Virus record (IMG/VR): IMGVR_UViG_3300020201_000012
Location: 1-64,000 of that record
Strand: one strand, 5' to 3'
DNA length: 64,000 nt
Source: a virus
Taxonomy: Duplodnaviria; Heunggongvirae; Uroviricota; Caudoviricetes
The position numbers and the translations under genes were made by a program. The notes beneath the pieces are model-generated. The model worked only from the letters and a program-made list of their open reading frames with translations, made no database searches and was not told the origin of the DNA. This document shows, piece after piece, positions 36,192 to 59,737 of this stretch; position 1 is the first letter of the stretch, and the number at the start of each line of letters is the position of its first letter.

Positions 36192-36194
36192 TGT

Positions 36195-36284
36195 GGATAG
36201 TTGCCCGAGAGGTTTAAGGGAACGGTTTGCTAAATCGTCGTAGTCGAAAGGCTACCGTAGGTTCGAATCCTACACTCTCCGCCA
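36195..36284 (+). tRNA. tRNA-Ser(GCU)
   Basis: Loop TTGCTAA, long variable arm. Confidence 0.55.
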
Positions 36285-36287
36285 TAA

Positions 36288-36364
36288 TCGTGGGTAGACA
36301 AATAGGTAAAGTCGTCTGCCTTTGAAGCAGAAGTTTGTAGGTTCAAGTCCTACCCCGCGAGCCA
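36288..36364 (+). tRNA. tRNA-Gln(UUG)
   Basis: Anticodon stem TCTGC/GCAGA, loop CTTTGAA, T-loop TTCAAGT. Confidence 0.6.
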
Positions 36365-37538: not shown

Positions 37539-37553
37539 AAGAGTAATTAAGTT

Positions 37554-43370: not shown

Positions 43371-43787
43371 ATGAAAGAATTACAAAAAATCAGTACGTCG
43401 ATAGTGTCACTAAATGAGGGCGCTAAATTAAGCCTGGCAAAAGCCCTAAGCAAACCACAGACTCAACAACAAAAAGAATCCATCAAGAAATCAACCGGCG
43501 TATACACTCAATATACTGAAAAACGAAAAAACCCAAAAATAATCAATAGAGGAAAAATAACCTACTACATATATGATGAAAAAGTGGTGGTCTCAGTTGG
43601 TTGTGAACAATACATATCATATAACCAATATGATAACTGGAACAGGCAGGGAATAAATCAATTTATCGATAAATTGAAAAAATCAGAAGATGGCGAATAC
43701 GCTAATGTCATAGATCAAATGTCGTTAGCAGTGCGATGCGGTATAAGAGGTTCGAGTACAACTAAACCGAAAGAGGTAGAATTATGA
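43371..43787 (+). CDS. Hypothetical protein
   Basis: ORF only. Confidence 0.2.
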   Translation: MKELQKISTSIVSLNEGAKLSLAKALSKPQTQQQKESIKKSTGVYTQYTEKRKNPKIINRGKITYYIYDEKVVVSVGCEQYISYNQYDNWNRQGINQFIDKLKKSEDGEYANVIDQMSLAVRCGIRGSSTTKPKEVEL

Positions 43788-44749: not shown

Positions 44750-45492
44750 TAAAAATGGTAAAAGCAAAACTAAATCAGAGATGGAACTTAGTATTACCAA
44801 GCCATCGTGCGGCTCGCCCGGAGTGGTTAGAGCTTGATGGTTGGGAGGGCCCAAGACTTTTATCTATGAGTAAGAATATCGGTAAGGGTGATGTAGTCTA
44901 TTATGTTGGTGCTGAACTTGGAGAGATGGCAGCACTCTGCCAATCATGGGGTGCCGAAACAGTGTTATTCGAGCCGAACCATTCAGCATGGCCGTCTATT
45001 AAAAAAACTTATGAAGCTAATAATATGAAACCATTAGCGTGCTTTGCCGGTTTCGCATCTAACGTACATAAACCTATACCATCTGACCCCGATACTGGTT
45101 TACTGGAAGGTGCCGGTTGGGTTATAGGCAGCGATGGTTGGCCACTATCATCGCATGGTGATATTATTGAAGCCCACGGTTTCAGTGAACTATATCAGGA
45201 GGCAGATGGGTTGCCACAATTCAAGATTGACGACCTAGTTAGTGCCGGCTTAAAACCACCGACAGTCATCACGTTCGACTGTGAAGGTAGCGACTGGGAG
45301 GTACTAAAGGGTGCCGAACAAACACTTATTAAATACAAGCCTAAAATATGGGCTTCAATTCATCCTGAGTTCATGTTTCACCAATACGGAGAATATTCAA
45401 GGGATTTCAGAAACTGGATTATTGACCACGGCTACAAAGAAACCTACTTAGAGTACGCCCACGAATTGCATTGCTACTATGAGTCAATCTAA
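44716..45492 (+). CDS. FkbM-family SAM-dependent methyltransferase
   Basis: GKGDVVYYVGAELGEMAALC…FEPN… pattern. Confidence 0.45.
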   Translation: MGNNIKGDRVMIKMVKAKLNQRWNLVLPSHRAARPEWLELDGWEGPRLLSMSKNIGKGDVVYYVGAELGEMAALCQSWGAETVLFEPNHSAWPSIKKTYEANNMKPLACFAGFASNVHKPIPSDPDTGLLEGAGWVIGSDGWPLSSHGDIIEAHGFSELYQEADGLPQFKIDDLVSAGLKPPTVITFDCEGSDWEVLKGAEQTLIKYKPKIWASIHPEFMFHQYGEYSRDFRNWIIDHGYKETYLEYAHELHCYYESI

Positions 45493-46162
45493 ATTCAATA
45501 TTTGCGGGGCGGGTCACACGATGCATGACACGGAGCTTATAGGTACAACCATCGGCAATATGTGGATTTTTAAGTATTTACAGTACGCAGGTCAAGCTGG
45601 GATATATTGTACTGGGCAAGATGTACTTTCGCAAGCTATTGCGCTACAGGGTTCTTGGGAGGATAGGGATACTGCCGTTATGAAGCCAATACTCGAAAAT
45701 GGCGATCATAATAGTTTATTTATAGACGTCGGTAGCCACATAGGGTGGTATACGGTAATGGCTGCGAAATTAGGATATAATGTGGTGGCAATTGACGGCG
45801 ACGCTGAAAATCTAAGAGTTTTAGAAATGAACTTAATAGAAAATAACATAGTAGACTTAGTAGAAATCAGACATGAATGGATGGATGAGACTACTGAGCT
45901 GCAATTTAATCAAGATATAGAGCTACTCAAGATCGATATTGAGGGTAATGAAAGACACGTTATTAATGCCCTCGAGGGTATGATAGAAAATAATCAGATT
46001 AAGCATATATATCTTGAGGTGTCGCCGGAGTTTAACGATACATACCCAGCCCTTATGAGTAAGCTGTCTAATAAATACGATGTTTATTACGATGATGGAA
46101 GACCCTTTGATAATAACTACTCAAACGGACAGATTAATCTATTATGTAAATTGAGGAAATAA
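45479..46162 (+). CDS. FkbM-family methyltransferase
   Basis: FIDVGSHIGWYT and LKIDIEGNE hallmark motifs. Confidence 0.6.
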   Translation: MSQSKFNICGAGHTMHDTELIGTTIGNMWIFKYLQYAGQAGIYCTGQDVLSQAIALQGSWEDRDTAVMKPILENGDHNSLFIDVGSHIGWYTVMAAKLGYNVVAIDGDAENLRVLEMNLIENNIVDLVEIRHEWMDETTELQFNQDIELLKIDIEGNERHVINALEGMIENNQIKHIYLEVSPEFNDTYPALMSKLSNKYDVYYDDGRPFDNNYSNGQINLLCKLRK

Positions 46163-46165
46163 ATA

Positions 46166-47035
46166 ATGAATGCATACTTTTTATCACTTAAAAGCGAAAC
46201 ACCAAACCGAGACTACTGGGACTATGGTTTCTTAGATGACTATATAAACGGTCGGCTATGGAAAACATACGAATGGGTTGACTACGAGCAACTAGAGGTA
46301 ATGAAACTTCCTAAAGATAGCAAAGCCATAGTAGTTGTTCCCGCGAGACATCATGCAGGACTAGAAGAAAAGATAAATAAAGAACTACAGAATATTGATA
46401 AAGTAGTTTTGTTCTTGATGGGTGACGAAGAAGCTAGTTTCGACGTAGAAAAAATAAAACACCCCGATATTAGTATCTGGGTACAAAACGCACATCCAGG
46501 CAAGCATGATAAGTATAACCGTATAGGTACTGGTTACCCGCAAGCTATAAGACAATTAGACGGTACGCCCTATAAAAAAGACCTAGATGTATATTTCAGT
46601 GGTCAGATTACCCACCCTAAACGTGCTGATATGTGGGCCTCTCTTAAAGATTACCCGGGTTCAATTATGAATAAGACTGGTGGATTCACGCAAGGTGCTA
46701 CCCCAGAAATATATTACAAATATATGAGCAGAGCAAAAGTAGTGCCGTCACCGGCTGGTGCAGTTATACCAGATAGCTTTAGAACTTTTGAGGCTATGGA
46801 GTGCATGGCAATACCTGTAGCAGACGATAAAAACTCGTTAGAAACAATAAGCAACTACTGGGACTGGTTATTTAATGATATTACACCTTTTCCTAGAATA
46901 CAAAATCCCGAAGCTTGGCCTTTTATTGTTGCACAAAGTGTCTACATCTACAATGAATTAATACAAAAACAAACCGCGTGGTGGATTAAATATAAAAGAG
47001 ATTTTGCATATAAAATAAAGGAGCAACTACAATGA
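46166..47035 (+). CDS. Hypothetical protein (possible glycosyltransferase)
   Basis: Lies inside the glycosyltransferase/methyltransferase cluster. Confidence 0.2.
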   Translation: MNAYFLSLKSETPNRDYWDYGFLDDYINGRLWKTYEWVDYEQLEVMKLPKDSKAIVVVPARHHAGLEEKINKELQNIDKVVLFLMGDEEASFDVEKIKHPDISIWVQNAHPGKHDKYNRIGTGYPQAIRQLDGTPYKKDLDVYFSGQITHPKRADMWASLKDYPGSIMNKTGGFTQGATPEIYYKYMSRAKVVPSPAGAVIPDSFRTFEAMECMAIPVADDKNSLETISNYWDWLFNDITPFPRIQNPEAWPFIVAQSVYIYNELIQKQTAWWIKYKRDFAYKIKEQLQ

Positions 47036-47769
47036 TAACTGTTATACTCGTTTCTAGCGTGTTGCCTACCCACCCAGACACGTCAATTATAGACGAAACC
47101 TATGCTAGCATAAGACACCACTTGCCTGATGCTGAAATTATTCTACAGCTTGATGGCATAAGAGAAGAGCAAGAAGATCGTAAGGCCGACTATGATGAAT
47201 ACAAGAAAATAATACTTTGGAAATGTCTACACGAGTGGACTAATGTCCTGCCGGTTGTATTTGAAGAATTCTCGCACCAAAGCAATATGATGAAAGCCAC
47301 CATAGATATGGTAAAAACTCCATTAATACTATACATGGAAGGGGACTGCCCGTTAGTCACTGATTGCGAGATAGACTGGCAAGCATGTACGTCGCTAATA
47401 ACTAGCGGTGAAGCCAACACTATCCGGTTTCATTTTGAAGCTTCTATACTAAAGCCACACGAGCATTTAATGATAGCAAGGCACGGAAATTTCTTGCAGA
47501 CGATTCAGTGGTCTCAGCGCCCCCACTTGTCAAGTACTATCTACTATAAGGATACAGTATTACCGACAGTATCAGACAAGCTGTTTATAGAGGACACGTT
47601 CCACGGTCTCGTACAAGATGATTATAGTACTAGTGGATTATTAGGCTGGTACAAGCACCGTTTGTGGATATATCACCCAGACGGTAACATTAAACGAAGC
47701 CACACCTTAGACGGCAGGGCGGGCGGTAAGAAGTTTACGTCTGACGATGAAGTATGGGCGACAGGATGA
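47032..47769 (+). CDS. GT-A-fold glycosyltransferase-like protein
   Basis: N-terminal ITVILVSS…P…DTSII…ASI… is Rossmann/GT2-like. Weak. Confidence 0.3.
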   Translation: MITVILVSSVLPTHPDTSIIDETYASIRHHLPDAEIILQLDGIREEQEDRKADYDEYKKIILWKCLHEWTNVLPVVFEEFSHQSNMMKATIDMVKTPLILYMEGDCPLVTDCEIDWQACTSLITSGEANTIRFHFEASILKPHEHLMIARHGNFLQTIQWSQRPHLSSTIYYKDTVLPTVSDKLFIEDTFHGLVQDDYSTSGLLGWYKHRLWIYHPDGNIKRSHTLDGRAGGKKFTSDDEVWATG

Positions 47770-48815
47770 GACTTACCGTAATAGCACGGGCAGACTTAAC
47801 CGGGCTCGGAGTGCAGAGTCGCAACTGGGTGCGTCTTTTAGATCCTCACAAAGTAGTTGTGATAAACTCTAGGCCGTTCAACAATAATGAGCAACATTTT
47901 GAGTGGTACGCACACAGGCCCAATGCTTTTGTAGTTGACGGTTTTATACAATATGATCAAATTAACTCTATCTTAAACGATACAGATGTTCTTTTAACTT
48001 TTGAGGCTGTATATAATTATGCAATTATTTCTGCCGCACGAGAGAGGGGAATTAAAACAATAATACAAAATAACTGGGAGTTCACAGATTATCTTCGCCA
48101 ACCAGATCTTCCGTTCCCTGACTTATTGGTTAATCATTCGTATTGGCACCTAGACGAGCAGAAAAGACTATGGCCCGACATAACAGAATATTGTGCGACG
48201 CCCCTTTTTATAGAAGACTATGACTCTATAATGCTTCAGAATATGAATCGTGACCCCTCTAAGCGTCGCTTCTTACATATTGCAGGTCGAAAGACATATG
48301 AAGAACGTAATGGGACTAATGACTTAGTAGCGGCGGTAAGTCTTATACCCCCAGAGTATGATTTTGAGTTAGTAATAAAAGCGCAGAACGCAGATGTGCC
48401 AGATATGGGTGATCCGCGTATAGTGATTGATCGTAGCTCGCCGGAAGATGAAAAAGAATTATACCGCGATTTCGATGCTATGATTATGCCACGTCGTTAT
48501 GGCGGCGCTTGTTTGCCGATGAATGAAGCCCTTGCCTCTGGCCTGCCTGTTATTATGACTGACATAGACCCCAACAATAAAGTATTACCTAAAGACTGGC
48601 TTGTTGAGGCAGACAGAACGGGTGAATTTTTTACTCGCACTGTCATAGATTTATTCTCTGTTAATAGGCAAGCTCTCGCTAACAAAATAGTTGAGTTCAT
48701 ACTTTTAGAAGGCAATGAAAACAAACTACGAGCTAGAGAGATAGCAATAAAAGAATACTCTAGCGAATCCGTAAAAGAAAAATGGGCTTTACTTATGTCT
48801 AAATTAGGGGTATAA
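47754..48815 (+). CDS. Glycosyltransferase family 1 (GT4-like)
   Basis: …FLHIAGRKTYEERNGTNDL…DAMIMPRRYGGACLPMNEALASGLPVIMTDI… matches the GT1 E-x7-E region. Confidence 0.55.
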   Translation: MGDRMRLTVIARADLTGLGVQSRNWVRLLDPHKVVVINSRPFNNNEQHFEWYAHRPNAFVVDGFIQYDQINSILNDTDVLLTFEAVYNYAIISAARERGIKTIIQNNWEFTDYLRQPDLPFPDLLVNHSYWHLDEQKRLWPDITEYCATPLFIEDYDSIMLQNMNRDPSKRRFLHIAGRKTYEERNGTNDLVAAVSLIPPEYDFELVIKAQNADVPDMGDPRIVIDRSSPEDEKELYRDFDAMIMPRRYGGACLPMNEALASGLPVIMTDIDPNNKVLPKDWLVEADRTGEFFTRTVIDLFSVNRQALANKIVEFILLEGNENKLRAREIAIKEYSSESVKEKWALLMSKLGV

Positions 48816-48822
48816 TGAGTAT

Positions 48823-49104
48823 ATGAAAACAGTAAACAGCAAGATAATATTCAGCGCCACAATTGAACTTACTAATCAGATAATAGATGAATCTATGAAT
48901 GAAAGCTATATAGAGCATAAGAAAAAAGATATGGCTCACCAATTAGGCCTTCAGATAGTAGGGGAAAAAGGTTGGGAAGTAGAGGTAGTTGAAGATCGTA
49001 CTTTACTTGATATAAGATTATATGTATTCACACCGCAAGAACTAAAAGACTTTATTGATATAAAGCTTCAGCATAAGCTAGAAAAGATGGGTATTACAGA
49101 TTAA
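48823..49104 (+). CDS. Hypothetical protein
   Basis: ORF only. Confidence 0.2.
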   Translation: MKTVNSKIIFSATIELTNQIIDESMNESYIEHKKKDMAHQLGLQIVGEKGWEVEVVEDRTLLDIRLYVFTPQELKDFIDIKLQHKLEKMGITD

Positions 49105-49123
49105 AAATTTAGCAATAGGTGAT

Positions 49124-49801
49124 TTGCACACCAAGTCATGGATAATAGAAGAGGTAGAAAAGCTCGTAGATAATTACGACGCAGTTGTATTTGTCGGCGA
49201 TTACGCAGACAACTGGAACACGGGCCCTGGTCAGACTATGGCTACATGGCGATTGTTAAAAATGTTTATGGATTCAAACCCTACTGTTCATGCAGTTATA
49301 GGTAATCACGATTATGCCTACATACACCCAGAGATAGCGGGTAGGTCTAGCGGCTGGAACCCGATAACCTATCAATTGATAAATGCCCCCGAGAACAAGA
49401 AGATTAAAGACTGGTTACTATCACTACCGGTTATTCTTGAGCTAGACGGTGTAAGCTACTCGCATGCTGGTATAACCGAACAGTGGAATGGCGAGCTAGA
49501 TGTTTCAAGCCTATGGAACGATCAAAGCCCTATATGGGCTAGGCCGCGAGAGTTCGGGGGTTTTGTCACTTATAAAAATATTAAACAAGTTATAGGCCAT
49601 AACTGTAGTGAAAAAATTTGGCAACCGCAAGAAGGGGTATGGTGTATTGATACGTTCTCAGAGCACCAAGATAACACGCCAGTGGGTGACCAGACTATAC
49701 TAGAAGTGACAGACGGTAAAGAATTTTTACCAATAAAACTAAAAGAAACACAAAATGAAGATAATAGCAATACTGCCGATTTCAAGACTACAGTATCTTG
49801 A
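49124..49801 (+). CDS. Calcineurin-like metallophosphoesterase
   Basis: VVFVGDYADNW and VIGNHDY motifs. Confidence 0.5.
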   Translation: MHTKSWIIEEVEKLVDNYDAVVFVGDYADNWNTGPGQTMATWRLLKMFMDSNPTVHAVIGNHDYAYIHPEIAGRSSGWNPITYQLINAPENKKIKDWLLSLPVILELDGVSYSHAGITEQWNGELDVSSLWNDQSPIWARPREFGGFVTYKNIKQVIGHNCSEKIWQPQEGVWCIDTFSEHQDNTPVGDQTILEVTDGKEFLPIKLKETQNEDNSNTADFKTTVS

Positions 49802-50528
49802 TAGGGTTATAGACTCGTTAATAGCGCAAACCCATAAAGTTCAAGGCTTAATAGTTGTACTCGATCTTGCTGACGATGAGTATTTAGAGGCTAGAAATAA
49901 AATTGTTGGTTTAGGCTTTGATCAGGTTTTATGCGTTAAGTCTAACAACCTCGCCCCAGTACATTCAGTACCTGAACGCCGTGAACATATTACCAATATA
50001 CACAATCAATTTAGAGGTTTGATTGGTGAAGCAGATTGGGTATTCAGCATGGAAGACGATAGTATAATACCATCAGACGCACTAGAGCGTTTAATAAACG
50101 TAACAAGAACCGAAGAAAAAGTTGGAATGGCAACAGGTGTCGAGCTCGGTCGATGGGGTGTACAGTATGTTGGTGCTTGGACGGTTGACGACATAGAAAA
50201 TGTACAATTAATAACGTCGGTTGAAAATCGCATTCTAGAAACCTCACTAGTACAAGAGATTGATGCTTGCGGTCTCTACTGTGGCTTGATACGTGCAGAC
50301 CTATATAAAGAGCATGAGTTCTTTACTTATAACGGTTTAGGGCCAGATGTTAACCTAGGGCTATTTATAAGAAATAAAGGTTTCAACAATTATATAGCAT
50401 GGGGCATACCCGTAATTCACCTAACTAACTCTATGAGAGAAGAAATAGAGATAACACCGTTCAGCCAGTCTCGTATTGTTACTTTAAGCTTGTTATCTGA
50501 GAGCACTTGGCAAGCTTCTTCAAATTAG
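49755..50528 (+). CDS. Glycosyltransferase family 2-like
   Basis: N-terminal KIIAILPISRLQYLDRVIDSLIAQTH…VLDLADD resembles GT2. Confidence 0.45.
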   Translation: MKIIAILPISRLQYLDRVIDSLIAQTHKVQGLIVVLDLADDEYLEARNKIVGLGFDQVLCVKSNNLAPVHSVPERREHITNIHNQFRGLIGEADWVFSMEDDSIIPSDALERLINVTRTEEKVGMATGVELGRWGVQYVGAWTVDDIENVQLITSVENRILETSLVQEIDACGLYCGLIRADLYKEHEFFTYNGLGPDVNLGLFIRNKGFNNYIAWGIPVIHLTNSMREEIEITPFSQSRIVTLSLLSESTWQASSN

Positions 50529-50530
50529 TG

Positions 50531-50559
50531 TTGACATTTGCCCTATAAGCAAGTATAAT
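50531..50559 (+). promoter_or_regulatory. Consensus sigma70 promoter (TTGACA-17-TATAAT)
   Basis: Perfect hexamers upstream of 50566. Confidence 0.5.
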
Positions 50560-50565
50560 TAAGTT

Positions 50566-50934
50566 ATGACATATAACCAAGAAATAGACGAGCCAGCCGA
50601 GTTCGTCACTAAAGATAGCGGCGAAAGAGAAGAGTTTGAGACCGGCAGCCGTAGGGATACGCAAAACGGCAAGCCAAGATATGACTTAATACCAACAGGC
50701 CCACTTACTAGAGTGGCGCATCTATACGCTAGAGGTGCCGAGAAGTACGACGACTGGAACTGGGTTAAGGGCCAGCCAATGAGTCGAGTTTATGCATCTA
50801 TGTTTAGGCATATGATTGCGTGGCGAGATGGTGACAAATCGGAAGATCACCTTGCGGCAGTAGCGTGGAATGCTTTTGCATTAATGCACTTCGAAGATAA
50901 CAAACCAGAGTTAAATGATTTGGAGATAATATGA
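50566..50934 (+). CDS. Putative nucleotide pyrophosphohydrolase-like protein (MazG-related phage family)
   Basis: …RYDLIP…L.RVAHLYARGAEKY…NW… pattern, recalled from phage dATP/dGTP diphosphohydrolase-like proteins. Low certainty. Confidence 0.25.
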   Translation: MTYNQEIDEPAEFVTKDSGEREEFETGSRRDTQNGKPRYDLIPTGPLTRVAHLYARGAEKYDDWNWVKGQPMSRVYASMFRHMIAWRDGDKSEDHLAAVAWNAFALMHFEDNKPELNDLEII

Positions 50935-51167
50935 TATTTAGAGTGACAATGAAAGATACGGATGTTCTAGACGACGGAATCGATGAGGCGCTTGATAAGT
51001 GGTTTTTGACGAGTGGTTTACCAGAAGACGAGCAAGAGGAGATTCGTGAGATACGTCACGAAAAAGCATCAGACGTTGCAGGCCAGTGGTTTAGGTATGG
51101 TGAGTATTTAACTGTAGAAATAGATACAGAAAAAGAAACAATAAAGGTAATACGAAATGAAGTTTAA
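50931..51167 (+). CDS. Hypothetical acidic protein
   Basis: ORF only. Confidence 0.2.
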   Translation: MIFRVTMKDTDVLDDGIDEALDKWFLTSGLPEDEQEEIREIRHEKASDVAGQWFRYGEYLTVEIDTEKETIKVIRNEV

Positions 51168-52428
51168 AGAATTAGAGAACAAGAATTATGCAGCGACCAT
51201 AGTAAGAATTGATAGTCTGCACCCACTAGAGAATAGTGATAATCTCATCGGTACACCGCTTCTAGGTATGCAAGCTGTCGTTTCAAAAGACACGGAAGTG
51301 GGCACGATAGGCGTTGTTTTCGTAGCCGAGACTCAGTTGAGTGAAGAATACACAGCTAGAAATAACCTATTTCGTCACCACGAGTTTAATGAAGATAAAG
51401 ACAAGACTGGCTTCATAGAAGATAATCGTCGAGTGAAGGCTATTAAGTTGCGTGGCAGTAATTCTAACGCGTTATTTATGCCGCTTTCGTCTTTGGCTTA
51501 TACAAAAGTTGACCTTAGCGAATTCAAGATAGGTGATGCATTTGAAGAGTTAAACGGCTATGAGATTTGTAAGAAGTATCAAGTCAAATCTAAGTCTTAC
51601 CCGACCCATGAAAAAAATAAGCATAAAGTGTTCACCCGTGTCGATGAAAGAATGTTTCCGCGACATTATGATACTGACCAGTATTACAGAGTTCTTGATA
51701 CATTTAAGCCCTACACCGAGATTATTGTTACCCAAAAACTACACGGTACATTACTAAGGTTCTCAAATATTCCGGTTAAGCGTAAACTTTCACTAGCCGA
51801 AAAATGGGTGTCTAAACTAGGTGTTAAAGTACAGCAAGAAGAATATGCTCATATCTATGGGTCTAATCGTGTTATTAAAGATGCTAACAATAATAACCAA
51901 AGACATTTCTATGAACACGATATATGGACAGAAGCAGCTAAAAGATTTGACGATATGATTCCTGAAAACTTTGTTGTTTATGGTGAGTTAATCGGCTGGA
52001 CACCAGACGGTGCCCCTATTCAAAAGAACTATACATACCATGTGCCTCACCCGACTAACGAACTATACGTCTACCGAGTTGCTCAGATTAATGGGCAAGG
52101 TATCATGACCGACTTAAGTTGGGATCAGTTGAAAGAGTTCTGTAGAGATAGGGGTATGAAGCACGTACCAGAACTATGGCGTGGTAAACACCAAGACTTC
52201 AGCCCAGAAGAATGGCTAGACACAAACTATAGCGAGAAGTTGCATGGTGGTTATCCACAGGCAGTACCGCTAGACAAAGAGAGCCCGTGCGAAGAGGGTA
52301 TATGCATAAGAGTTGAAGGTCTAGCACCCTATATAGCAAAATTAAAATCACCAGAATTTTTCGCCCATGAAACAAAAATGATGGACGAAGAGGTACTGGA
52401 CATAGAAGAAGAAAGCAAGGTAGAGTGA
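51157..52428 (+). CDS. ATP-dependent RNA ligase, Rnl2-like nucleotidyltransferase domain with an N-terminal OB-like extension
   Basis: Motif I QKLHGT (compare T4 Rnl2 KIHGTN), motif III VVYGELIGW, motif IV EEGICIRVEG, motif V IAKLKS. About 190 aa N-terminal extension. Confidence 0.5.
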   Translation: MKFKELENKNYAATIVRIDSLHPLENSDNLIGTPLLGMQAVVSKDTEVGTIGVVFVAETQLSEEYTARNNLFRHHEFNEDKDKTGFIEDNRRVKAIKLRGSNSNALFMPLSSLAYTKVDLSEFKIGDAFEELNGYEICKKYQVKSKSYPTHEKNKHKVFTRVDERMFPRHYDTDQYYRVLDTFKPYTEIIVTQKLHGTLLRFSNIPVKRKLSLAEKWVSKLGVKVQQEEYAHIYGSNRVIKDANNNNQRHFYEHDIWTEAAKRFDDMIPENFVVYGELIGWTPDGAPIQKNYTYHVPHPTNELYVYRVAQINGQGIMTDLSWDQLKEFCRDRGMKHVPELWRGKHQDFSPEEWLDTNYSEKLHGGYPQAVPLDKESPCEEGICIRVEGLAPYIAKLKSPEFFAHETKMMDEEVLDIEEESKVE

Positions 52429-52652
52429 AATATAACGTAAAATTTTACCTAAATTCAGGGCTTGTGTATGAAATGGAGACAGACGACCATAGGAACTATC
52501 AAAAAATATTAAAGAAAAAGAGTAACGTTCTCCAGATTTTCTCGAAAGAAAACGAAGTTAAATATATCCCAGTCTCTAATATACAACTTCTCGAAGTTAA
52601 AGAGAACGATACGCTTAAAAGAAAAGAAAAACAAAATGAACAATCAAGTTAA
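52425..52652 (+). CDS. Hypothetical small protein
   Basis: ORF only. Confidence 0.2.
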   Translation: MKYNVKFYLNSGLVYEMETDDHRNYQKILKKKSNVLQIFSKENEVKYIPVSNIQLLEVKENDTLKRKEKQNEQSS

Positions 52653-53550
52653 AGTTATAATCACCAGAGGCTTACCCGCTTCTGGTAAAAGCACCTATGC
52701 CCGCGAGTGGGTTTCAGAAGATACTTCTAGTAGGGTTTGTATAGAAAAAGATATAATCAGAAAAAATGCCAGCCTATTTAAGGACGGCGTTTATACGCAT
52801 AAGCGTGGTGATGAATCAATAGTAATAAGAGAAAGAGATAAACTCATAAACCAATCTTTACAAGATGGCAAAAGTGTTATATCATCTGATACTAACCTAT
52901 TGCAGAAACACATTGCACAAATATCTTCTATTGCTAGAAAATATAATGCCGAGATAGAGGTTGTAAGTTTCTTAGACGTACCATTGAAAGAGCTTATTGA
53001 TAGAGATAAGAATAGGCAAAACTCAGTTGGAGAACAAGTGATTCGTAAGATGTTTCACGAACAAGTTAAGAAGATGCCAACCTTCTTGAAGTTTGACCCG
53101 AAGTTGCCAAATTGTGTTATTAGTGATTTGGATGGTACTCTGACCCTTGGCCCAAAAGATCGCTCGCCCTATGAGTGGGCAAAAGTAGGTAATGATGACC
53201 TTAACTTAGGTATATCACATATACTAGACGGCGTCAAAATTATAGACTATGCAAAGATATTTATATTCAGTGGTAGAAACGCTGTATGTCGCCCACAGAC
53301 AGAAGATTGGTTAGAGCGTAATGATATTGAGTATGACTTACTAGCAATGAGGCCACAGTTCTTAGAAGACGGTAAAACAGAAAACAACTTGTCAGATGAG
53401 ATAATTAAAGCCGACATGATTGAAAAACATATTCGCGGGAAATACAACATTCTTCTATGGTTTGATGACAGAATTAGAATTTCTACTATGCTTAGAGACG
53501 TCTACGGAATTAACGTCGCACAGCTTGGGGATACTCGTTTCGAATTTTAA
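52636..53550 (+). CDS. pnkp: Polynucleotide kinase-phosphatase (T4 Pnkp-like)
   Basis: N-terminal P-loop GLPASGKST. C-terminal HAD phosphatase motif ISDLDGTL with later DD motifs. Confidence 0.65.
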   Translation: MNNQVKVIITRGLPASGKSTYAREWVSEDTSSRVCIEKDIIRKNASLFKDGVYTHKRGDESIVIRERDKLINQSLQDGKSVISSDTNLLQKHIAQISSIARKYNAEIEVVSFLDVPLKELIDRDKNRQNSVGEQVIRKMFHEQVKKMPTFLKFDPKLPNCVISDLDGTLTLGPKDRSPYEWAKVGNDDLNLGISHILDGVKIIDYAKIFIFSGRNAVCRPQTEDWLERNDIEYDLLAMRPQFLEDGKTENNLSDEIIKADMIEKHIRGKYNILLWFDDRIRISTMLRDVYGINVAQLGDTRFEF

Positions 53551-53551
53551 G

Positions 53552-53580
53552 TTGACAATTCAATAAAACTGGTGTAGAAT
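53552..53580 (+). promoter_or_regulatory. Sigma70-like promoter (TTGACA-17-TAGAAT)
   Basis: Sequence match only. Confidence 0.4.
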
Positions 53581-53586
53581 TAAAGT

Positions 53587-53949
53587 ATGAATACAATACA
53601 ATATATAGTAGTTAATAAAGATTTAAAAATGTCAGCAGGCAAAGCTATGGCACAGGTTGCTCATGCAATAATGCACTCGGCAGCATCAAAAAATTTCAAC
53701 AACTATCTCGATGCGAAACAGCGAACAGTGATAGTTCTAGAGGGAACGGGCACTCAGATATTAAACCTATTTAAGTATCTGATCCTTAGAGATATAGGCG
53801 CTAATTACGTCATAGACGAAGGTATTAACGAAATACCCACAATGTCTGTTACTGCTCTCGCGACAGATGTTTTAGATATTGAAGATAAGGATACACGATA
53901 CATCTTTCGGGGCTTCAAGCTATACAAGCATGGCAGGTTTCAAAGATGA
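53587..53949 (+). CDS. Peptidyl-tRNA hydrolase, PTH2-family-like
   Basis: YIVVNKDLKMSAGKAMAQVAHA… and …VIVLEG…VIDEG…IP..SVTALA match the PTH2 pattern. Confidence 0.45.
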   Translation: MNTIQYIVVNKDLKMSAGKAMAQVAHAIMHSAASKNFNNYLDAKQRTVIVLEGTGTQILNLFKYLILRDIGANYVIDEGINEIPTMSVTALATDVLDIEDKDTRYIFRGFKLYKHGRFQR

Positions 53950-54137
53950 AATACATATACGTATTAATAGACAAAGAAACGGATGGTTTCTGGGCAAATA
54001 CCAAGAACTATCACCGTAAGCGTGCTATTCAGGCATATACTAGTGAAGCTAGGGCTCTTGCTGCATTGTCAAACTTCTGGCCCAAAGTCGAGCCAAATAC
54101 AGTCGTCGTAAAGAAATTCAGAAGGATTACAGAATGA
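53946..54137 (+). CDS. Hypothetical small protein
   Basis: ORF only. Confidence 0.15.
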   Translation: MKYIYVLIDKETDGFWANTKNYHRKRAIQAYTSEARALAALSNFWPKVEPNTVVVKKFRRITE

Positions 54138-54442
54138 ATGAAGATATGGCATCGGAAAAAATAGTAATATTTTGGCGTTTTGGGTATTTTAAACTATTTG
54201 ACAGTAGGGGTAACCAGGTAAACGACAGGTTCGTATTAACTGAGGATTATGATTGGGCAAGAATATTTTGGCGCTTCTATTATAGGGAGGCATATTATGA
54301 ATAAAATAACAGTAATTACTTTTGGTATATTTCTATTTGGTATGAATGTATATTTAGCACTAAATTCAAGTCTAGATTGGTGGACCGTGTTAGGCACCTC
54401 GTCTTCCGCTTTTATGGTTGGTTTTGGGTGGGGCAAAAAATA

Positions 54443-55144
54443 ATGAAACCTAAATCTATAATACTAGAAGGCATAACCGGTTCTAAGGCTTATGGTCTAG
54501 ACACCGAGAAATCAGATACCGATATTAAGGGTATATATTTATTGCCGACTGCAAAAGTATTAGAGATGGGTTTCGATTTACAGCACACAACAGTTGACAA
54601 TGTAGACCCTGACTGGGTTTATCATGAAACTGCTAAATTTATGAAGCTTGTAGTGGGTGGCAACCCAACCGTAACTGAACTTCTGTATTTAAATGATTAT
54701 ACGATAATGACACCAATAGGTCAAATATTAGTAGACAATAGAGACGCATTTTTGTCAACTAAAGCAGTTATGAACGCTTATCGTGGTTACGCATTCTCAC
54801 AGGCTAAGAAGTTAAACAACCGCACAGAGCAGGGTCTTGATGGTTATGACAGTTCACTTAAGAACCGTTTCTCTAAGCATACGAGACATCTTTGGAGGTT
54901 ATTAGAACAAGCAGAACAGCTACTTACCACTGGTACTCTGAGTGTTAAGCTAACTCAAAAACAACGTGAAGAATGCTTTGCTCTTGGTGAAAAAAGTGCT
55001 AGCGAAGTTGTAGATTATTTTATAGAAAAAGATAAATATGTATCAGAGCTATCGAGTGTATTGCCAGATAAGCCAGATATTGAAAAACTTAATAACATTC
55101 TATACAATATTAGAATGAATAACTACGACGAGATAGAATTATAA
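54443..55144 (+). CDS. Pol-beta-superfamily nucleotidyltransferase
   Basis: GITGSKAYGLDTEKSDTDIKG gives the GS…DxD nucleotidyltransferase motif. The start is taken at the ATG overlapping the upstream stop (the track ORF begins at 54377). Confidence 0.45.
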   Translation: MKPKSIILEGITGSKAYGLDTEKSDTDIKGIYLLPTAKVLEMGFDLQHTTVDNVDPDWVYHETAKFMKLVVGGNPTVTELLYLNDYTIMTPIGQILVDNRDAFLSTKAVMNAYRGYAFSQAKKLNNRTEQGLDGYDSSLKNRFSKHTRHLWRLLEQAEQLLTTGTLSVKLTQKQREECFALGEKSASEVVDYFIEKDKYVSELSSVLPDKPDIEKLNNILYNIRMNNYDEIEL

Positions 55145-56073
55145 TGTCATACAATAACTGGAAAATGATGGATAAGATAGATGTTGCGGTGAGAACTGGC
55201 GATAATAGTTATCGTGGGTTTACTGGCTACATCGTACCTCATGGCGACAAAGAATCTCTTGAAAAGGCTAAAGACTGGGCAAGAAACCAAACATGGGATG
55301 ACGAACTTCGTAAGCATCTAACAGTACATGAACCAGATGTTCACACCTTTGACAACGAAGGCTTTACGGCAAAGATCCTTCAATCAGCCGGTGGCTCGTC
55401 ACAGGGTGGAAGATTGTCTTTCTGGGCGTGTGAAGTAGAAAAAGACGGTATCAAGTTCACTATCGGTGTAAATGATGCAGTTCTAGCTGACTTAATCAGG
55501 TCAAGCGATATGTCAAATGGTCTAGTTAAGCAGAAAGTTATGTTTGCTCGTAGGGCAGGTCAACCAGGACTCATACACGAAGGTATGCAATCTTACCAAG
55601 ATGCAACAGCAGACATGGCCCATAAAGCAACCATGAAAGCCGCCAAGAAAACCTCTAAGTGGGAAATTGGTGGAGTGTATTCATCTATAACCCAGACTGC
55701 TATATGTCTTGGTGAAGTATTTGATTCCATGGAAGAATATACAGTTCAAAATAATACTTGGCGGTACGGTAGAACTGAAACAAAATTTCGCAAGCGTGAT
55801 GTGCCAGTTAAGACTTTAGCTTGGGTTCACATATATAACCCTGAAAATGGCCTGCCGAAAGACTTTAACGAGCTGATGAATAAAAAACTAGAAGATAAAA
55901 GATATGTATATTTTTACACTGGTAAGCCGCCGGCACGCGCCAAGACAGGGCAACTAGAAGTCAAAGACACCGATATGAAGCTACTTGATAAGGTTTTATC
56001 TTTACGTAGAGAGAGTGTGAACTATGGTGAAGTAGAGATTACTAAGCGCTTTGCGAGGAAATTAAATGTCTAA
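55144..56073 (+). CDS. Hypothetical protein
   Basis: 309 aa; overlapping start with the nucleotidyltransferase gene. Confidence 0.2.
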   Translation: MSYNNWKMMDKIDVAVRTGDNSYRGFTGYIVPHGDKESLEKAKDWARNQTWDDELRKHLTVHEPDVHTFDNEGFTAKILQSAGGSSQGGRLSFWACEVEKDGIKFTIGVNDAVLADLIRSSDMSNGLVKQKVMFARRAGQPGLIHEGMQSYQDATADMAHKATMKAAKKTSKWEIGGVYSSITQTAICLGEVFDSMEEYTVQNNTWRYGRTETKFRKRDVPVKTLAWVHIYNPENGLPKDFNELMNKKLEDKRYVYFYTGKPPARAKTGQLEVKDTDMKLLDKVLSLRRESVNYGEVEITKRFARKLNV

Positions 56074-56587
56074 ATATAAACCTTGGTTCTTTGTAGATGT
56101 TGAAGCAAGAGGAACTTCTCCTGTTAATGGTACTATGACAGAATTTGGTATTGTTCACTATGATACCAAAGAAACATTTCATGGTATTCTTTATGAAGGT
56201 ACGCCAGACCCAGAAAACCCAGCAAAACCAATCGTAGGTCAGAGAGTCAACGCCACAGGAACAGTTGTGCTAGATTTAAACGACTGGCTAGCTAGCTTCA
56301 TCGGTCACGGCAATGCGACAATGATTTCAGACAACCCAGCGTATGACTTTATGTGGATCGCAGGAATGTATGATGAAGTTGGTCTAGAAAACCGATTTGG
56401 TCACTCAGCTCGAAGAATAAGCGACTTTTACGCTGGTGTACAACTAAAATGGGGCGACACACAGGGCTGGAAACGTTACAGAGAAACACCACACGATCAT
56501 AACCCTGTTAATGATGCAATGGGTAATGTAGAAGCATTTATGAGAATAGAAGAAATAGTAGCAGAAAAGAAAAGAGAAGCTAAATGA
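56066..56587 (+). CDS. DEDDh 3'-5' exonuclease (RNase T/oligoribonuclease-like)
   Basis: FFVDVEARG (Exo I), DNPAYDFMW (Exo II), HNPVNDAMGN (Exo III). Confidence 0.45.
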   Translation: MSKYKPWFFVDVEARGTSPVNGTMTEFGIVHYDTKETFHGILYEGTPDPENPAKPIVGQRVNATGTVVLDLNDWLASFIGHGNATMISDNPAYDFMWIAGMYDEVGLENRFGHSARRISDFYAGVQLKWGDTQGWKRYRETPHDHNPVNDAMGNVEAFMRIEEIVAEKKREAK

Positions 56588-56690
56588 AATACGCGTTTCC
56601 ACCAAAAACACTGTATGATACCCTGTGCACACCAAAGATGTATAAAAAGTACCCCGGTTCGCCAACGTGGGCTTATGATGGGCAGTTTAT

Positions 56691-56984
56691 ATGGATAGTT
56701 CAATGACACCTAAAAGATACAAAGCAACGACTCTACCCCCAGAGACACCAGACCCTTTCATGGGCTTTAAGACTTTTACCATTAAGGGTTACTATGTTAA
56801 GCACGTTTACGCAACCCCCCACCCAATAAGTACTAAAGAAAAAGATGATCGGTTTGTTGCAGAACATACTAAACATTACATTATGTCTGACGGCTTCTCT
56901 GACTGGGGTTTACCACGAGAGCTAGAGGTACACGAAATAGATATTAATACTTTAGAGGAATGTATAGAGTCAACAAATGGATGA
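56691..56984 (+). CDS. Hypothetical protein
   Basis: ORF only. Confidence 0.2.
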   Translation: MDSSMTPKRYKATTLPPETPDPFMGFKTFTIKGYYVKHVYATPHPISTKEKDDRFVAEHTKHYIMSDGFSDWGLPRELEVHEIDINTLEECIESTNG

Positions 56985-57222
56985 CAAAACCAACGAAACG
57001 GAAGATTTTCCAGTTACCCTCGCTTTTGGGCAGGGCATTGAAGATATTATAGGTCAAATCACTCTATCTAAAAAAGCACTAGATATAATAAAGGCCGCAC
57101 CGCAAATGTGCGAATTTGCAATAGCATTCACAGGAGACGTTAACCAAGATGGAACATACAGTAACGGAAAGTTGCTTGAAGTTTCGCTAGTAATAAGGAA
57201 AGAACAATGGATAAAGCACTAA
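56977..57222 (+). CDS. Hypothetical protein
   Basis: ORF only. Confidence 0.2.
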   Translation: MDDKTNETEDFPVTLAFGQGIEDIIGQITLSKKALDIIKAAPQMCEFAIAFTGDVNQDGTYSNGKLLEVSLVIRKEQWIKH

Positions 57223-58169
57223 ACATTCAAAAAGAAGTACAACGTATTCTCGGCACCGAAGAGGTATATCTTGTTGGTGGTTCAGTTCGTGACTTAGTTA
57301 TGGGTAATGAACCTAAAGACTATGACTTCACTACCTCAATGCTACCCGAAGAAATGGTAGAGAAAGTTAAGGCTGCCGGTCGTCGTGTTTATACTATCGG
57401 CGAGAAGTTTGGCACTATTGGGTTCAAAGTGCCAGTGGTCGTAGGTTATGAATTAGAAGATACGGAGTCGATTTACGCAGAAGAGGCTAAGTACAAGAAC
57501 ATAGTCGAATATGAGTATGTAGAAGTCACTACGTTCAGAAGCGAAGTTTATACAAGTAAATCACGCAAACCTGAAGTTGAGTTTGTTACGAGTCTAGATG
57601 AAGACCTTAAGCGACGTGACTTTACAATGAATGCTATGGTTCTTAGAAGCGATGGTACTATATACGATCCTTTCGGTGGCAAACTAGATATTCATAAGAA
57701 ACAAATAATCACAGTCGGTATGCCAAAAGATAGGATTCTAGAAGACTCACTTCGTATCCTCCGTGCTGCACGGTTCGCCGCAAGATACAATTTTTCAATC
57801 GACCCTAACTTCATAGGTAAGGCAAGGCAACTAGCAGACCGTATCTTTGATGTATCTGTTGAGAGATGGGTGCAAGAGCTAGATAAACTTCTGGCATCAA
57901 AACACACCTTAAAAGGGCTTGAATCCTTATACGAGATGGGTGTTTTTCAAAGAATATTCCCCGAGATTATATCGGTACCAAATCTGTTGCTGAAGACACC
58001 AGATGTAGATGATGTCTGGAATGACCTACTGCGCAACGTTCATGTACCTGCACAAATTAAAGAACCAACAAGAACAAGAAAGCACATCAACGCTGGCATA
58101 TGTGCAAGATTTAAGTTTAGTAATGATCGATGTGATGTGATACTTGACAAACAAAAGAAAAAGGAGTAA
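57207..58169 (+). CDS. tRNA nucleotidyltransferase (CCA-adding enzyme) / poly(A) polymerase-family head domain
   Basis: LVGGSVRDLVMGNEPKDYDF (GG.VRD…DxD), RRDFTMNAM and DPFGG motifs. Confidence 0.65.
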   Translation: MDKALNIQKEVQRILGTEEVYLVGGSVRDLVMGNEPKDYDFTTSMLPEEMVEKVKAAGRRVYTIGEKFGTIGFKVPVVVGYELEDTESIYAEEAKYKNIVEYEYVEVTTFRSEVYTSKSRKPEVEFVTSLDEDLKRRDFTMNAMVLRSDGTIYDPFGGKLDIHKKQIITVGMPKDRILEDSLRILRAARFAARYNFSIDPNFIGKARQLADRIFDVSVERWVQELDKLLASKHTLKGLESLYEMGVFQRIFPEIISVPNLLLKTPDVDDVWNDLLRNVHVPAQIKEPTRTRKHINAGICARFKFSNDRCDVILDKQKKKE

Positions 58170-58178
58170 TATAATAAT

Positions 58179-58397
58179 ATGGTACCGGAAGAAGATATAA
58201 GAAAATTAAGTAAAGACTATAAACCAAACAGGGCTGAACGGCGTAAAAAACCGATAAACAGCCCTTGGTTCACTAAAGCGACTCACAGTTTTAGTAAATT
58301 GAGAAGAAAAAGCGCGAAAAGCAAGCAACAACGTAAAAAAGAAACCGCAAAAGCCCTAAAAGAGCACAGACAATCACTCAATACTGTAGTATCGTGA
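58179..58397 (+). CDS. Small highly basic protein
   Basis: K/R-rich 72 aa. Confidence 0.2.
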   Translation: MVPEEDIRKLSKDYKPNRAERRKKPINSPWFTKATHSFSKLRRKSAKSKQQRKKETAKALKEHRQSLNTVVS

Positions 58398-58447
58398 TAA
58401 CTAAGTAATAATATTGAAATTAAGATAATTAAAACCAAGGATGTTCA

Positions 58448-58846
58448 ATGATTAAAAGTAAAATAACAGCGACAGAAGAACTTAAAGAGCTAGAGAAGCT
58501 AACAAAAAAAGTTATACGCAAGTCACTAAAAGACAATACTTTAGATTTTACGTGTCAAATAACTAGGTCTAGTATCGATCCGGGTAAGACTAAGTATGCA
58601 ACACTAATCACATCCCCTTCTTACGCCGTACAGCCCATAAGCTTTATCTTTGATAGCTATGAAATGCTAAGGGCAGCCCTAGAACATGCAGAGAAAGAAA
58701 TTAACAAGAAACAAGTCGAGCTCACCTTTCACGAGTCTAGGATTACCACCTATAAAAACAAGATTCAACAGCACGAAGAGCGCATGAAACAATTAAATGA
58801 CCCAGAATATAAAGAAGAAGAAGAGATAGAAATGGAAGAAGTGTGA
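58448..58846 (+). CDS. Hypothetical coiled-coil protein
   Basis: ORF only. Confidence 0.2.
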   Translation: MIKSKITATEELKELEKLTKKVIRKSLKDNTLDFTCQITRSSIDPGKTKYATLITSPSYAVQPISFIFDSYEMLRAALEHAEKEINKKQVELTFHESRITTYKNKIQQHEERMKQLNDPEYKEEEEIEMEEV

Positions 58847-59064
58847 AAAAATTAACCGAACTACAAAAGATGAAATATTGGTTAGACGCTGAAATGACTA
58901 TACTGCACATTATGTTCGCAGTTGTGATGCTAGAGCTGACTGAAGGCTGGTTACCTACCTTTATTTTGAGTCTTTATATTACGTGGTGCGTAATATATAC
59001 GATGGTCAGAGTAGCTTACATAGCAGTAGATGACCCAGACTATCTCAGGGCACCAAAGAAATGA
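58843..59064 (+). CDS. Small membrane protein
   Basis: Two TM helices. Confidence 0.2.
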   Translation: MKKLTELQKMKYWLDAEMTILHIMFAVVMLELTEGWLPTFILSLYITWCVIYTMVRVAYIAVDDPDYLRAPKK

Positions 59065-59411
59065 CGCTATTAACGTTCATAATAATAAGCTTAGCCGTAT
59101 GGAGGTTATCACGGGGTATAGCTAAGGAAAAAGGCCCATTGATGATGTGGGCAAAGTTAAGAGCACGTCTAGCACGCACACAGAAGCGCCCTGGTGGGCT
59201 TTTCGACATGGTATCGTGCGTACAGTGCCTTTCGTTCTGGATAGGCCTTGTAGGGGCTCTGTGGGTCTCAGACAGCATTTTCAGTTGGATTGGCTACGGC
59301 TTTGCATTCTCTGGCGCCTCACTAATCATGGAAGCTTTACTGTCAAAAAATCTTAATTCCCTTACGACTGTTTCAAGAAATACTGATTTAGACCTTAAAT
59401 CACTACTATAA
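59061..59411 (+). CDS. Membrane protein
   Basis: Hydrophobic helices. Confidence 0.2.
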   Translation: MTLLTFIIISLAVWRLSRGIAKEKGPLMMWAKLRARLARTQKRPGGLFDMVSCVQCLSFWIGLVGALWVSDSIFSWIGYGFAFSGASLIMEALLSKNLNSLTTVSRNTDLDLKSLL

Positions 59412-59422
59412 AAACGGTAGAT

Positions 59423-59737
59423 TCAGCGAATAATCTTTATGCCTTTTATTTGGTTGCAACCCCAACATGTTATGACTAGATTTCTGTAAGCAGAAGTTCC
59501 ACCTCTAAATAACGGCAAGTAGTGATCTGTCACCCAAACACCAACAATGGGCCTCTTGCAGTAAAAGCAGAGGCCTTTTTGTTTTACCGTGTACTGGTAC
59601 TTTCTCCATCTCTTGAAGGCCGCGGTTTTCTTCTTTCGCTCAAAAGCATCTCTCTTTATTTTTAATAATGACGGCGAAACAGCGCCGATTGATTTTTTAG
59701 TTATCTTTACTAATTTGCTTCCTCGTCGTATGTACAT
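59423..59737 (-). CDS. HNH endonuclease
   Basis: CFYCKRPI…VTDHYLPLFRGGTSAYRNLVITCWGCNQIKG. Confidence 0.55.
   Translation of the reverse strand: MYIRRGSKLVKITKKSIGAVSPSLLKIKRDAFERKKKTAAFKRWRKYQYTVKQKGLCFYCKRPIVGVWVTDHYLPLFRGGTSAYRNLVITCWGCNQIKGIKIIR

Follow-up and report, generated by a model that had tools for sequence, protein, structure and literature searches.

In jumbo phages, comparative analysis has described a set of tRNAs, an RNA ligase of the PF09414 clade, a kinase-HAD phosphatase, the nucleotidyltransferase RlaP, a CCA-adding enzyme and a peptidyl-tRNA hydrolase of the PTH2 type, for which an archaeo-eukaryotic affinity was noted, and has read this set as counter-defence (Iyer et al. 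2021, Viruses 13:63, section 3.4.9, PMC7824862). In cluster E mycobacteriophages, the kinase-phosphatase Pnkp and an RNA ligase have been implicated in tRNA repair against host defence (PMC5511906, citing Zhu, Yin and Shuman 2004). Here we analyse a block of RNA-repair genes at positions 51157-58169 of a 64,000-nucleotide stretch of DNA (the window; positions 1 to 64,000 of the IMG/VR record IMGVR_UViG_3300020201_000012, Caudoviricetes). At a probability of roughly three in four, we read the block as a phage module of the kind already described, for RNA repair and tRNA 3'-end maintenance, arranged as two adjacent co-directional units. Such a module would most likely keep translation going while host ribotoxins or abortive-infection nucleases attack tRNA. 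All coordinates refer to the window and, unless noted, to its + strand.

The component list and the counter-defence reading are the same here as for the jumbo-phage toolkit. Unlike in jumbo phages, however, the genes are contiguous within a single 7-kb block, in a lineage whose contigs reach about 85-120 kb, and the block adds a DEDDh exoribonuclease and a conserved 309-residue protein (unk309) to the jumbo-phage list. The cluster E mycobacteriophages (Cjw1, 244 and Porky; Pnkp gp89, ligase gp93) carry a ligase that is alike over its full length and lies less than 2 kb from a T4-type Pnkp, whereas homologues of the window PTH2, RlaP and CCA-type proteins were not detected within 10 kb of that ligase, none is annotated in the Cjw1 region, and these phages have only about 2 tRNAs compared with 24 in the window. 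An earlier note on this DNA, written from the sequence, had presented the module as uncharacterised, but it has been described comparatively in jumbo phages, and cluster E phages pair the same ligase type with Pnkp. In phage T4, Pnkp and Rnl1 repair tRNA-Lys cleaved by PrrC. The window Pnkp is homologous to that of T4 over its full length and the heal-then-seal logic is the same, whereas the T4 sealing enzyme is Rnl1, specialised for anticodon-loop breaks, and that of the window is of the Rnl5 type; T4 has neither a PTH2 nor a CCA enzyme, both of which are encoded in the block, and its RlaP homologue is NrdC.11 (PMC12776372). In general, the reading of these genes as an RNA-repair and translation-rescue toolkit, as the earlier note had it, matches the literature (PMC7824862 section 3.4.9; PMC5511906; PMC12776372).

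The block lies within a long run of + strand open reading frames (ORFs) and is tightly packed: adjacent genes share 1-17 nt or leave no more than 36 nt between them, the sole exception being a gap of 103 nt (56587-56691). Gene families were assigned with Pfam, PHROG and NCBIfam profiles, and bit scores were compared with the curated cut-offs. All six genes named in the earlier note (ligase, Pnkp, PTH2, nucleotidyltransferase, exonuclease and CCA-adding enzyme) are present on the + strand at the positions it had given, and their superfamily types were correct. The ligase matches an RNA ligase profile (PF09414), the PTH2 gene PF01981 and the nucleotidyltransferase PF10127, all above cut-off, and five of the 12 ORFs in the block pass the Pfam cut-offs of RNA-end enzymes. 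The window also holds tape measure protein, endolysin and ribonucleotide reductase genes, has a GC content of 40.6%, and is a fragment of a tailed-phage genome. Megablast of the 7-kb block against 50,697 GenBank phage records gave zero matches, thus indicating that the phage itself is absent from GenBank; relatives are numerous in metagenomes, their longest contigs measuring about 85-120 kb.

Linkage was surveyed by searching 81 loci (79 viral contigs with relatives of the ligase, plus the phages XacN1 and Cjw1) with the window proteins. In 57 of the 81, the ligase and a Pnkp homologue are no more than 10 kb apart. The full order of metallophosphoesterase, GT2-like, (MazZ-like), ligase, Pnkp, PTH2, RlaP, unk309 and CCA enzyme genes is kept in two relatives whose ligases are 80-84% identical to that of the window (L003 and L014), and a second fetch added four further loci with this order (L085 and L087-L089). 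Partial sets were also found, with ligase, Pnkp and PTH2 together in L004 and L007, and ligase, Pnkp, RlaP and CCA enzyme together in L058. The proximity of Pnkp and ligase and the gene order kept in relatives mean that the clustering is not a chance juxtaposition.

The Rnl5-type ligase and Pnkp

The first of the repair genes (51157-52428) encodes a 423-residue ATP-dependent RNA ligase. It matches the PF09414 RNA_ligase profile over residues 188-387 with 58.5 bits (cut-off 27), and phrog_968 spans its full length (E 3.8e-100). Motif I, K-L-H-G-T, occupies residues 194-198, and the residues invariant across 31 homologues are K194, H196, G197, E277, G280, E380, G381, R385, K395 and K397; by inspection, candidate motifs can be placed at K194-LHGT (I), E277 (III), E380-G381 (IV) and K395/K397 (V). 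The chain begins with an OB-like domain (about residues 1-145), followed by a linker and then the nucleotidyltransferase domain. The match of the OB region to PF21189 (residues 13-110) is sub-threshold, at 22.9 bits versus 27. An AlphaFold model (predicted local distance difference test, pLDDT, 85) was built on 29 homologues; in it, only 26 residues with a single helix (399-410) follow K397, and no C-terminal domain is appended.

The Rnl5 family was defined by DraRnl (Deinococcus radiodurans DRB0094) and NgrRnl (Naegleria gruberi) as having an N-terminal domain, a C-terminal nucleotidyltransferase domain and no C-terminal appendage; it has been characterised biochemically and structurally, and homologues were noted in Aeromonas, Caulobacter, Mycobacterium and Sinorhizobium phages (PMC4408790). 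When the ligase model was searched with Foldseek, all 13 top matches were NgrRnl (PDB 5cot, 6vt*), aligned over the whole chain with an E value of 2.8e-14 and a target-normalised template modelling (TM) score of 0.69, at 14-16% identity in the structural alignment. T4 Rnl2 and REL1 matched the nucleotidyltransferase part alone (E about 4e-8, 270-292 columns, TMq 0.35-0.37). The NCBIfam model of DraRnl, TIGR02306, aligns with residues 15-348 and so with both domains (E 2.9e-9), although its equivalog cut-off is not reached (36.3 bits versus 151). DraRnl and NgrRnl have the same domain order as the window ligase, which is about 80 residues longer (423 versus about 340). On architecture and fold, on which its membership rests, the ligase is thus predicted to be a divergent phage subgroup of Rnl5. 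Neither the single ligase sequence nor a profile of 31 sequences retrieved NgrRnl from the PDB, the only result being a weak match to T4 Rnl2 (E 0.15), so that the Rnl5 assignment needed structure prediction and NCBIfam.

An Rnl2 identity, as proposed in the earlier note, was ruled out by the presence of the N-terminal OB domain, the absence of the Rnl2-type C-terminal helical domain and the partial alignment with T4 Rnl2 and REL1; the N-terminal extension of ~190 residues that the note called unusual is the OB-like domain that defines Rnl5. The XacN1 homologue has likewise been filed under 'Rnl2 family' (Iyer et al. 2021, PMC7824862). With the RNA ligases of Mycobacterium phage Cjw1 (cluster E) and Xanthomonas jumbo phage XacN1, the window ligase shares 46-47% identity at 99% coverage, and the Cjw1 enzyme (gp93) is encoded 0.8 kb downstream of Pnkp (gp89). 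Those Rnl5 enzymes that have been characterised act on nicked duplexes, sealing a 3'-OH (RNA) to a 5'-PO4 end, and require the N domain for adenylylation (PMC4408790). In the window ligase model, the OB domain weakly resembles the tRNA-binding OB domains of Trbp111 and PheRS-B2 (Foldseek, E 0.003-0.07).

The next repair gene (52636-53550) encodes a T4-type Pnkp, in agreement with the earlier call of a kinase-phosphatase. Both domains score above their Pfam thresholds (HAD_PNKP, PF25109, 98 bits versus 27.6; AAA_33 kinase, PF13671, 59.3 versus 27), and phrog_505 is matched with an E value of 5.9e-71. The protein aligns with T4 Pnkp (1ltq) over its full length (E 9.8e-22, residues 6-293 on 3-292), with GxxxxGKS and DxDGT kept; the P-loop of the kinase reads GLPASGKST and the DxDxT motif of the HAD phosphatase reads DLDGT.

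PTH2, RlaP and the enzymes of the RNA 3' end

The gene after Pnkp (53587-53949) encodes a predicted PTH2-type peptidyl-tRNA hydrolase, as had been claimed. It scores 51.6 bits with PF01981 (cut-off 23) and matches the NCBIfam Pth2 model with an E value of 1.4e-12, under the equivalog cut-off. Archaeal Pth2 structures are also matched (1rzw, E 8.6e-6; 1wn2, E 1.6e-4), and the alignment with 1rzw keeps the segments DLK.S.GK..AQVAHA and D.G..E.P. By analogy with the S. solfataricus enzyme, the aligned GK and D-x-G segments presumably contain the catalytic Lys and Asp.

The Pol-beta nucleotidyltransferase of the block (54440-55144) can be refined to RlaP, the RNA-ligase-associated family of this superfamily, on the basis of PF10127 (60.9 bits versus 23) and phrog_388 (E 1e-40). 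Its active-site signature G-S...D-T-D was read directly (GITGSKAYGLDTEKSDTD), and phmmer found no sequence match among solved structures. RlaP is encoded 2 kb past the ligase, and 7 related loci likewise have RlaP and ligase close together. Members of this family add one or two nucleoside monophosphates to damaged RNA 3' ends and have been proposed as an antidote to RloC-type nucleases; according to the same authors, the resulting 3'-OH end suits 5'-phosphate ligases (PMC12776372). The enzymes of Pseudomonas, PfRlaP and PaRlaP, belong to the same PF10127 family and share the link to an RNA ligase, whereas they sit in RtcB-RtcA operons and the partners of the window RlaP are Rnl5 and Pnkp. The kinship of the window protein with Pseudomonas RlaP would follow from the Pfam profile, on which it rests.

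The fifth enzyme (56066-56587) is a putative DEDDh 3'-5' exoribonuclease of the Rv2179c-like type. Its own PF16473 score is sub-threshold (21.8 versus 27), but PF16473 is present in most of the more than 1200 homologues that are 57-78% identical to it, and it aligns over its full length with PDB 7t2s ('3'-5' exonuclease', E 8e-4), including the DxE, D and Hx4D motifs, all of which is consistent with the DEDDh exonuclease proposed earlier. Its conservation beyond this phage group is unusually high, with about 60% identity to more than 1000 metagenomic proteins and to one protein of Polymorphospora rubra.

The last gene of the block (57207-58169) encodes a class II tRNA nucleotidyltransferase of the CCA type. 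The PolyA_pol head domain (PF01743, 107 bits) and the RNA-binding neck (PF12627, 50.7 bits) are both present, and the motifs GGSVRD...DYD, RRDFTMNA and EDSLRILRA were read directly and aligned with 6ibp and 1miv. The closest structures are Planococcus/Bacillus CCA-adding enzymes (6ibp, 3e-37; 1miv, 2.5e-34), followed by poly(A) polymerase (9e-25). The protein has an insert of ~45 residues in the head domain and no tail domain, and is 320 residues long versus about 400. Of the earlier call of a class II CCA-adding enzyme, the class II head and neck stand and the NCBIfam CCA models score best (195 and 183 bits, with PcnB at 128), whereas CCA addition finds no equivalog-level match in this 320-residue protein, all of these scores lying under the equivalog cut-offs.

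The RNAs on which such enzymes could act are encoded upstream. ARAGORN, Rfam and direct reading gave 24 good tRNA genes, all with an encoded CCA, in arrays at 24092-25201, 32626-32702 and 34134-36364, which are tight, with spacers of 3-8 nt. The earlier count of about 31 tRNAs compares with these 24 genes and one aberrant ARAGORN call in the window; that call (24622-24692, in the first array) has an undetermined two-base anticodon ('ac') followed by ATAG, lacks CCA, and was not reported by Rfam at the gathering threshold. The claimed transfer-messenger RNA (tmRNA; 37185-37540) is confirmed by Rfam only (RF00023, 62.8 bits versus a gathering score of 47), ARAGORN making no call there, and a conventional tag reading frame was not identified in it. 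Direct reading showed the acceptor pairing GGGGCUG/CGGCUCC with the alanine identity pair G3:U70 present, and a 3' end, ...CGGCUCC-A-AGA, in which CCA is not encoded. Because all good tRNA genes encode CCA, the phage CCA enzyme would act on them as a repair enzyme, and the tmRNA alone among the phage RNAs would depend on CCA addition. The maturation role given to the cluster in the earlier note is therefore needless for the phage tRNAs and retains a possible object in the tmRNA.

The 309-residue protein beside RlaP

Between RlaP and the exonuclease lies a gene for a conserved 309-residue protein, unk309 (55144-56073), a recurrent neighbour of RlaP with the motif SAGGSSQGGRLSFWxC. Searches of Pfam and NCBIfam with it returned no match, and its confident model (pLDDT 87.7) matches only uncharacterised phage proteins in BFVD. 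An exhaustive profile search gave a family of 452 clusters at 50% identity, with the motifs SAGGSSQGG[KR]LSFWxC, G.PG.[IL]HE.M and KKTSKW.

Neighbourhoods were compared in 42 viral loci with family members. In five of five close relatives unk309 adjoins RlaP, and the order of the two genes flips. In divergent jumbo-phage contigs, in which unk309 is 27-35% identical, RlaP was found about 1.4-5.6 kb away in seven loci, and in five of these a PF09414 ligase lies directly downstream of RlaP (L099, L101-L103 and L124). In L115, RlaP and a CCA-type enzyme come after unk309, and L095 has an RtcB gene 1.9 kb upstream of the unk309 homologue. A Pfam scan of 123 neighbours of 25 dereplicated divergent members counted RlaP (4), AAA_33 kinases (4), Thg1 (3), HD (3), Tpt1/KptA (2) and RNA_ligase (2). 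Nucleotide-metabolism genes, often NrdD, ThyX and FolD, also occur near unk309 homologues. A YqeY-like (GatB C-terminal-like) protein is encoded about 1.3 kb upstream of the homologue in five loci (L090, L100, L107, L108 and L110), and Thg1 and Tpt1/KptA genes occur in neighbourhoods of this type.

In XacN1, ORF119, two genes past the Rnl5 ligase, aligns weakly with unk309 (hhalign E 7.6e-4, probability 25%). Cjw1 gp94, which follows the ligase gene, was considered as RlaP or unk309 and rejected, as it has weak helix-turn-helix Pfam matches and no significant unk309 alignment.

Tentatively, unk309 may represent an unrecognised phage-specific family with a new fold that works as a component of RNA repair, most likely as a partner of RlaP; it could present or hold broken tRNA 3' ends, or take part in nucleotide choice. 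The link to repair is guilt by association, counted without a formal null, and novelty was judged against Pfam, NCBIfam and BFVD; we treat it as a lead, and it is the sole new lead of the block.

Transcription, surroundings and reading of the block

Two predicted promoters divide the block. P1 (50531-50559; TTGACA-17-TATAAT, 12/12 consensus positions) has a -10 hexamer that ends 6 nt before the ATG at 50566, and P2 (53552-53580; TTGACA-17-TAGAAT) falls within the 36 nt that separate Pnkp from PTH2 and ends 6 nt before the PTH2 ATG. Both are kept at equivalent positions in L003 and L014, where the counterpart of P2 follows Pnkp at 12223 and 12404, respectively. The same geometry (TTGACA, 17 nt, (g)TAnnAT and 6 nt ahead of the ATG of a real ORF) occurs at eight sites, at 48788, 50531, 53552, 58144, 59763 and 61486 on the + strand and at 39582 and 23893 on the - strand, and the exact pattern has 7 matches in the window, compared with 0.06 in shuffled sequence. 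In a generic scan, the totals of promoter-like and terminator-like sites were not above shuffle expectation and only the leaderless geometry was enriched; the best generic promoter matches fall in the few intergenic gaps. Transcription starting 7 nt past the -10 hexamer would begin at the A of the ATG and yield leaderless mRNAs, so that leaderless transcripts are predicted for many early or middle genes of this phage. No terminator-like site was found on the + strand from 48507 to 59672, and the block is co-directional and probably read through, with two entry points. From this layout we infer a division into a break-repair unit (from P1, with Pnkp and Rnl5) and a 3'-end unit (from P2, with PTH2, RlaP, the exonuclease and the CCA enzyme). 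Immediately past the downstream end of the block, the - strand carries a solitary HNH endonuclease gene (59423-59737), flanked by the only terminator-like hairpin of the region (59672-59687); it looks like a mobile insertion.

The ligase unit opens with a protein with a MazZ-like dATP/dGTP diphosphohydrolase N-terminal domain (50566-50934; PF18909, E 2e-24). Pathways of 2-aminoadenine (Z) genomes are known to include this domain. In at least four other loci, a homologue immediately precedes the ligase, namely in L014 (9610-10008), L019, L051 and L060. Further upstream are a calcineurin-like metallophosphoesterase (49124-49801), assigned by Pfam and with a weak NCBIfam ApaH-like match, and a GT2-like glycosyltransferase (49755-50528; Pfam), and this pair is kept just upstream of the ligase unit in L003, L004, L014, L085 and L087-L089. 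Enzymes of the lambda-phosphatase type have 2',3'-cyclic phosphodiesterase activity (PMC2190708), and calcineurin-like phosphatases are mentioned in some phage repair sets (Iyer et al. 2021, PMC7824862); the phosphoesterase may belong to the repair module. The run directly upstream of the block (43784-50528) comprises GT1/GT2-like, Methyltransf_21-like and unannotated genes together with the phosphoesterase, and may be a DNA or surface-glycan modification cassette. Two genes outside the block are further RNA-processing candidates, a second metallophosphoesterase immediately after the first tRNA array (25301-26296; phrog_20266) and an RNase_H-superfamily/RNase T-like exonuclease with a zinc ribbon (42517-43332).

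Small ORFs are interspersed with the named genes. A 78-residue ORF without a Pfam match (50931-51167) precedes the ligase, and a 75-residue one, orf75 (52425-52652), follows it; orf75 was considered as a conserved ligase partner and rejected, its sequence being conserved nowhere beyond an identical contig. Three more lie between PTH2 and RlaP (53946-54137, 54134-54304 and 54297-54443), and a Pfam search with them gave no match reaching the gathering score: the first has a sub-threshold DUF2750 match (E 0.007, 16.9 bits versus 27), the other two have none, and by eye the third looks like a two-helix membrane peptide. Two ORFs of 97 and 81 residues (56691-57222) precede the CCA-type gene, and the first of these is kept ahead of the CCA gene in L014.

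A mechanism is proposed in which Pnkp would phosphorylate 5'-OH ends and strip 2',3'-cyclic or 3'-phosphates, and Rnl5 would seal the healed 3'-OH/5'-PO4 break via lysyl-AMP on K194; where a nucleotide has also been lost, as with RloC-type nucleases, RlaP would add one or two nucleotides to the 3'-OH before ligation. PTH2 would free tRNAs trapped as peptidyl-tRNA (or N-blocked aminoacyl-tRNA) and, together with tmRNA, could clear stalled ribosomes and recycle peptidyl-tRNA. The exonuclease would trim 3' ends, on which the class II nucleotidyltransferase would rebuild CCA, and the phage tRNAs would stand in for depleted host species. The enzymatic activities, their substrates, the division of labour between the units and selection by host defence are all what we infer. 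Several observations weigh against this reading. The promoter calls are consensus matches only, and several ORFs of the block have no assignable function. No exonuclease homologue was found among the 81 ligase loci, and the gene is absent from its position in L003 and L014; in L014, whose ligase is 84% identical, two small unrelated ORFs (15322-15773) occupy that position, which shows that the exonuclease is an accessory insertion that is not conserved in the closest relatives. The CCA-type enzyme is short and scores below the equivalog cut-offs, and CCA-, CC- and A-adding activities cannot be told apart from its sequence. Counter-defence is read from the genes alone, the window giving no pointer to the host or its toxins. 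Rnl1 and Rnl4 are the ligases specialised in anticodon-loop breaks (PMC4408790), whereas characterised Rnl5 enzymes are not known to seal them; the T4 model of PrrC repair can therefore not be carried over as it stands, and the substrate of the ligase is uncertain.

The block could instead be a housekeeping system that matures and quality-controls the phage tRNAs and tmRNA for heavy translation with a codon usage unlike that of the host, no nuclease being needed. The tmRNA, with no encoded CCA, would require 3' processing and CCA addition, the 3-8 nt spacers of the tRNA arrays call for 3' trimming, the exonuclease and the CCA enzyme share a unit, and PTH2 and tmRNA are general translation-rescue functions. 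CCA is nevertheless encoded in all 24 tRNA genes, and bacteria have a CCA-adding enzyme, Pth and RNase T/PH of their own; close relatives do without the exonuclease, and the most strongly linked genes, those of Pnkp, the RNA ligase and RlaP, take no part in ordinary tRNA maturation in bacteria. We therefore regard this explanation as unlikely, but as the most serious competitor to a repair module. A role in replication or DNA-end repair, in which the ligase and Pnkp would process RNA-primed or damaged nicks in DNA/RNA hybrids of the phage genome, appears improbable. T4-type Pnkp also heals DNA ends, Rnl5 prefers a nicked duplex with an RNA 3'-OH strand (PMC4408790), and the theme would take in the MazZ-like deoxynucleotide diphosphohydrolase, which heads the ligase unit and adjoins the ligase in several other loci, and nearby nucleotide-metabolism genes; NrdD, ThyX and FolD genes are often found near unk309 homologues. 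This sits poorly with the tRNA- or RNA-acting PTH2, RlaP and CCA enzyme that directly follow the ligase unit, with the weak likeness of the ligase OB domain to Trbp111 and PheRS-B2, and with the link of this ligase type and Pnkp to tRNA repair (PMC5511906).

Least probable is that unrelated accessory genes have met by chance in a part of the genome that varies. The early regions of phage genomes are mosaic, and the exonuclease and small ORFs do vary between relatives; gene order, however, persists in relatives whose proteins are as little as about 50-60% identical, sub-sets of these families turn up together in unrelated phages, and five of the 12 ORFs exceed the Pfam thresholds of RNA-end enzymes.

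As a repair module, the block would be a compact and nearly complete kit to heal, refill, seal, de-peptidylate, trim and re-CCA, accompanied by tRNAs and tmRNA. Its presence in a mid-sized uncultivated phage indicates that such a kit is not confined to jumbo phages and can travel as a 7-kb block. The combination of Rnl5, RlaP and Pnkp is the 5'-phosphate-ligase setting in which RlaP biochemistry predicts refilling followed by sealing, which makes it convenient for reconstitution. The overall importance is modest, and the main gain would be unk309, if it proves to be a true new repair factor.

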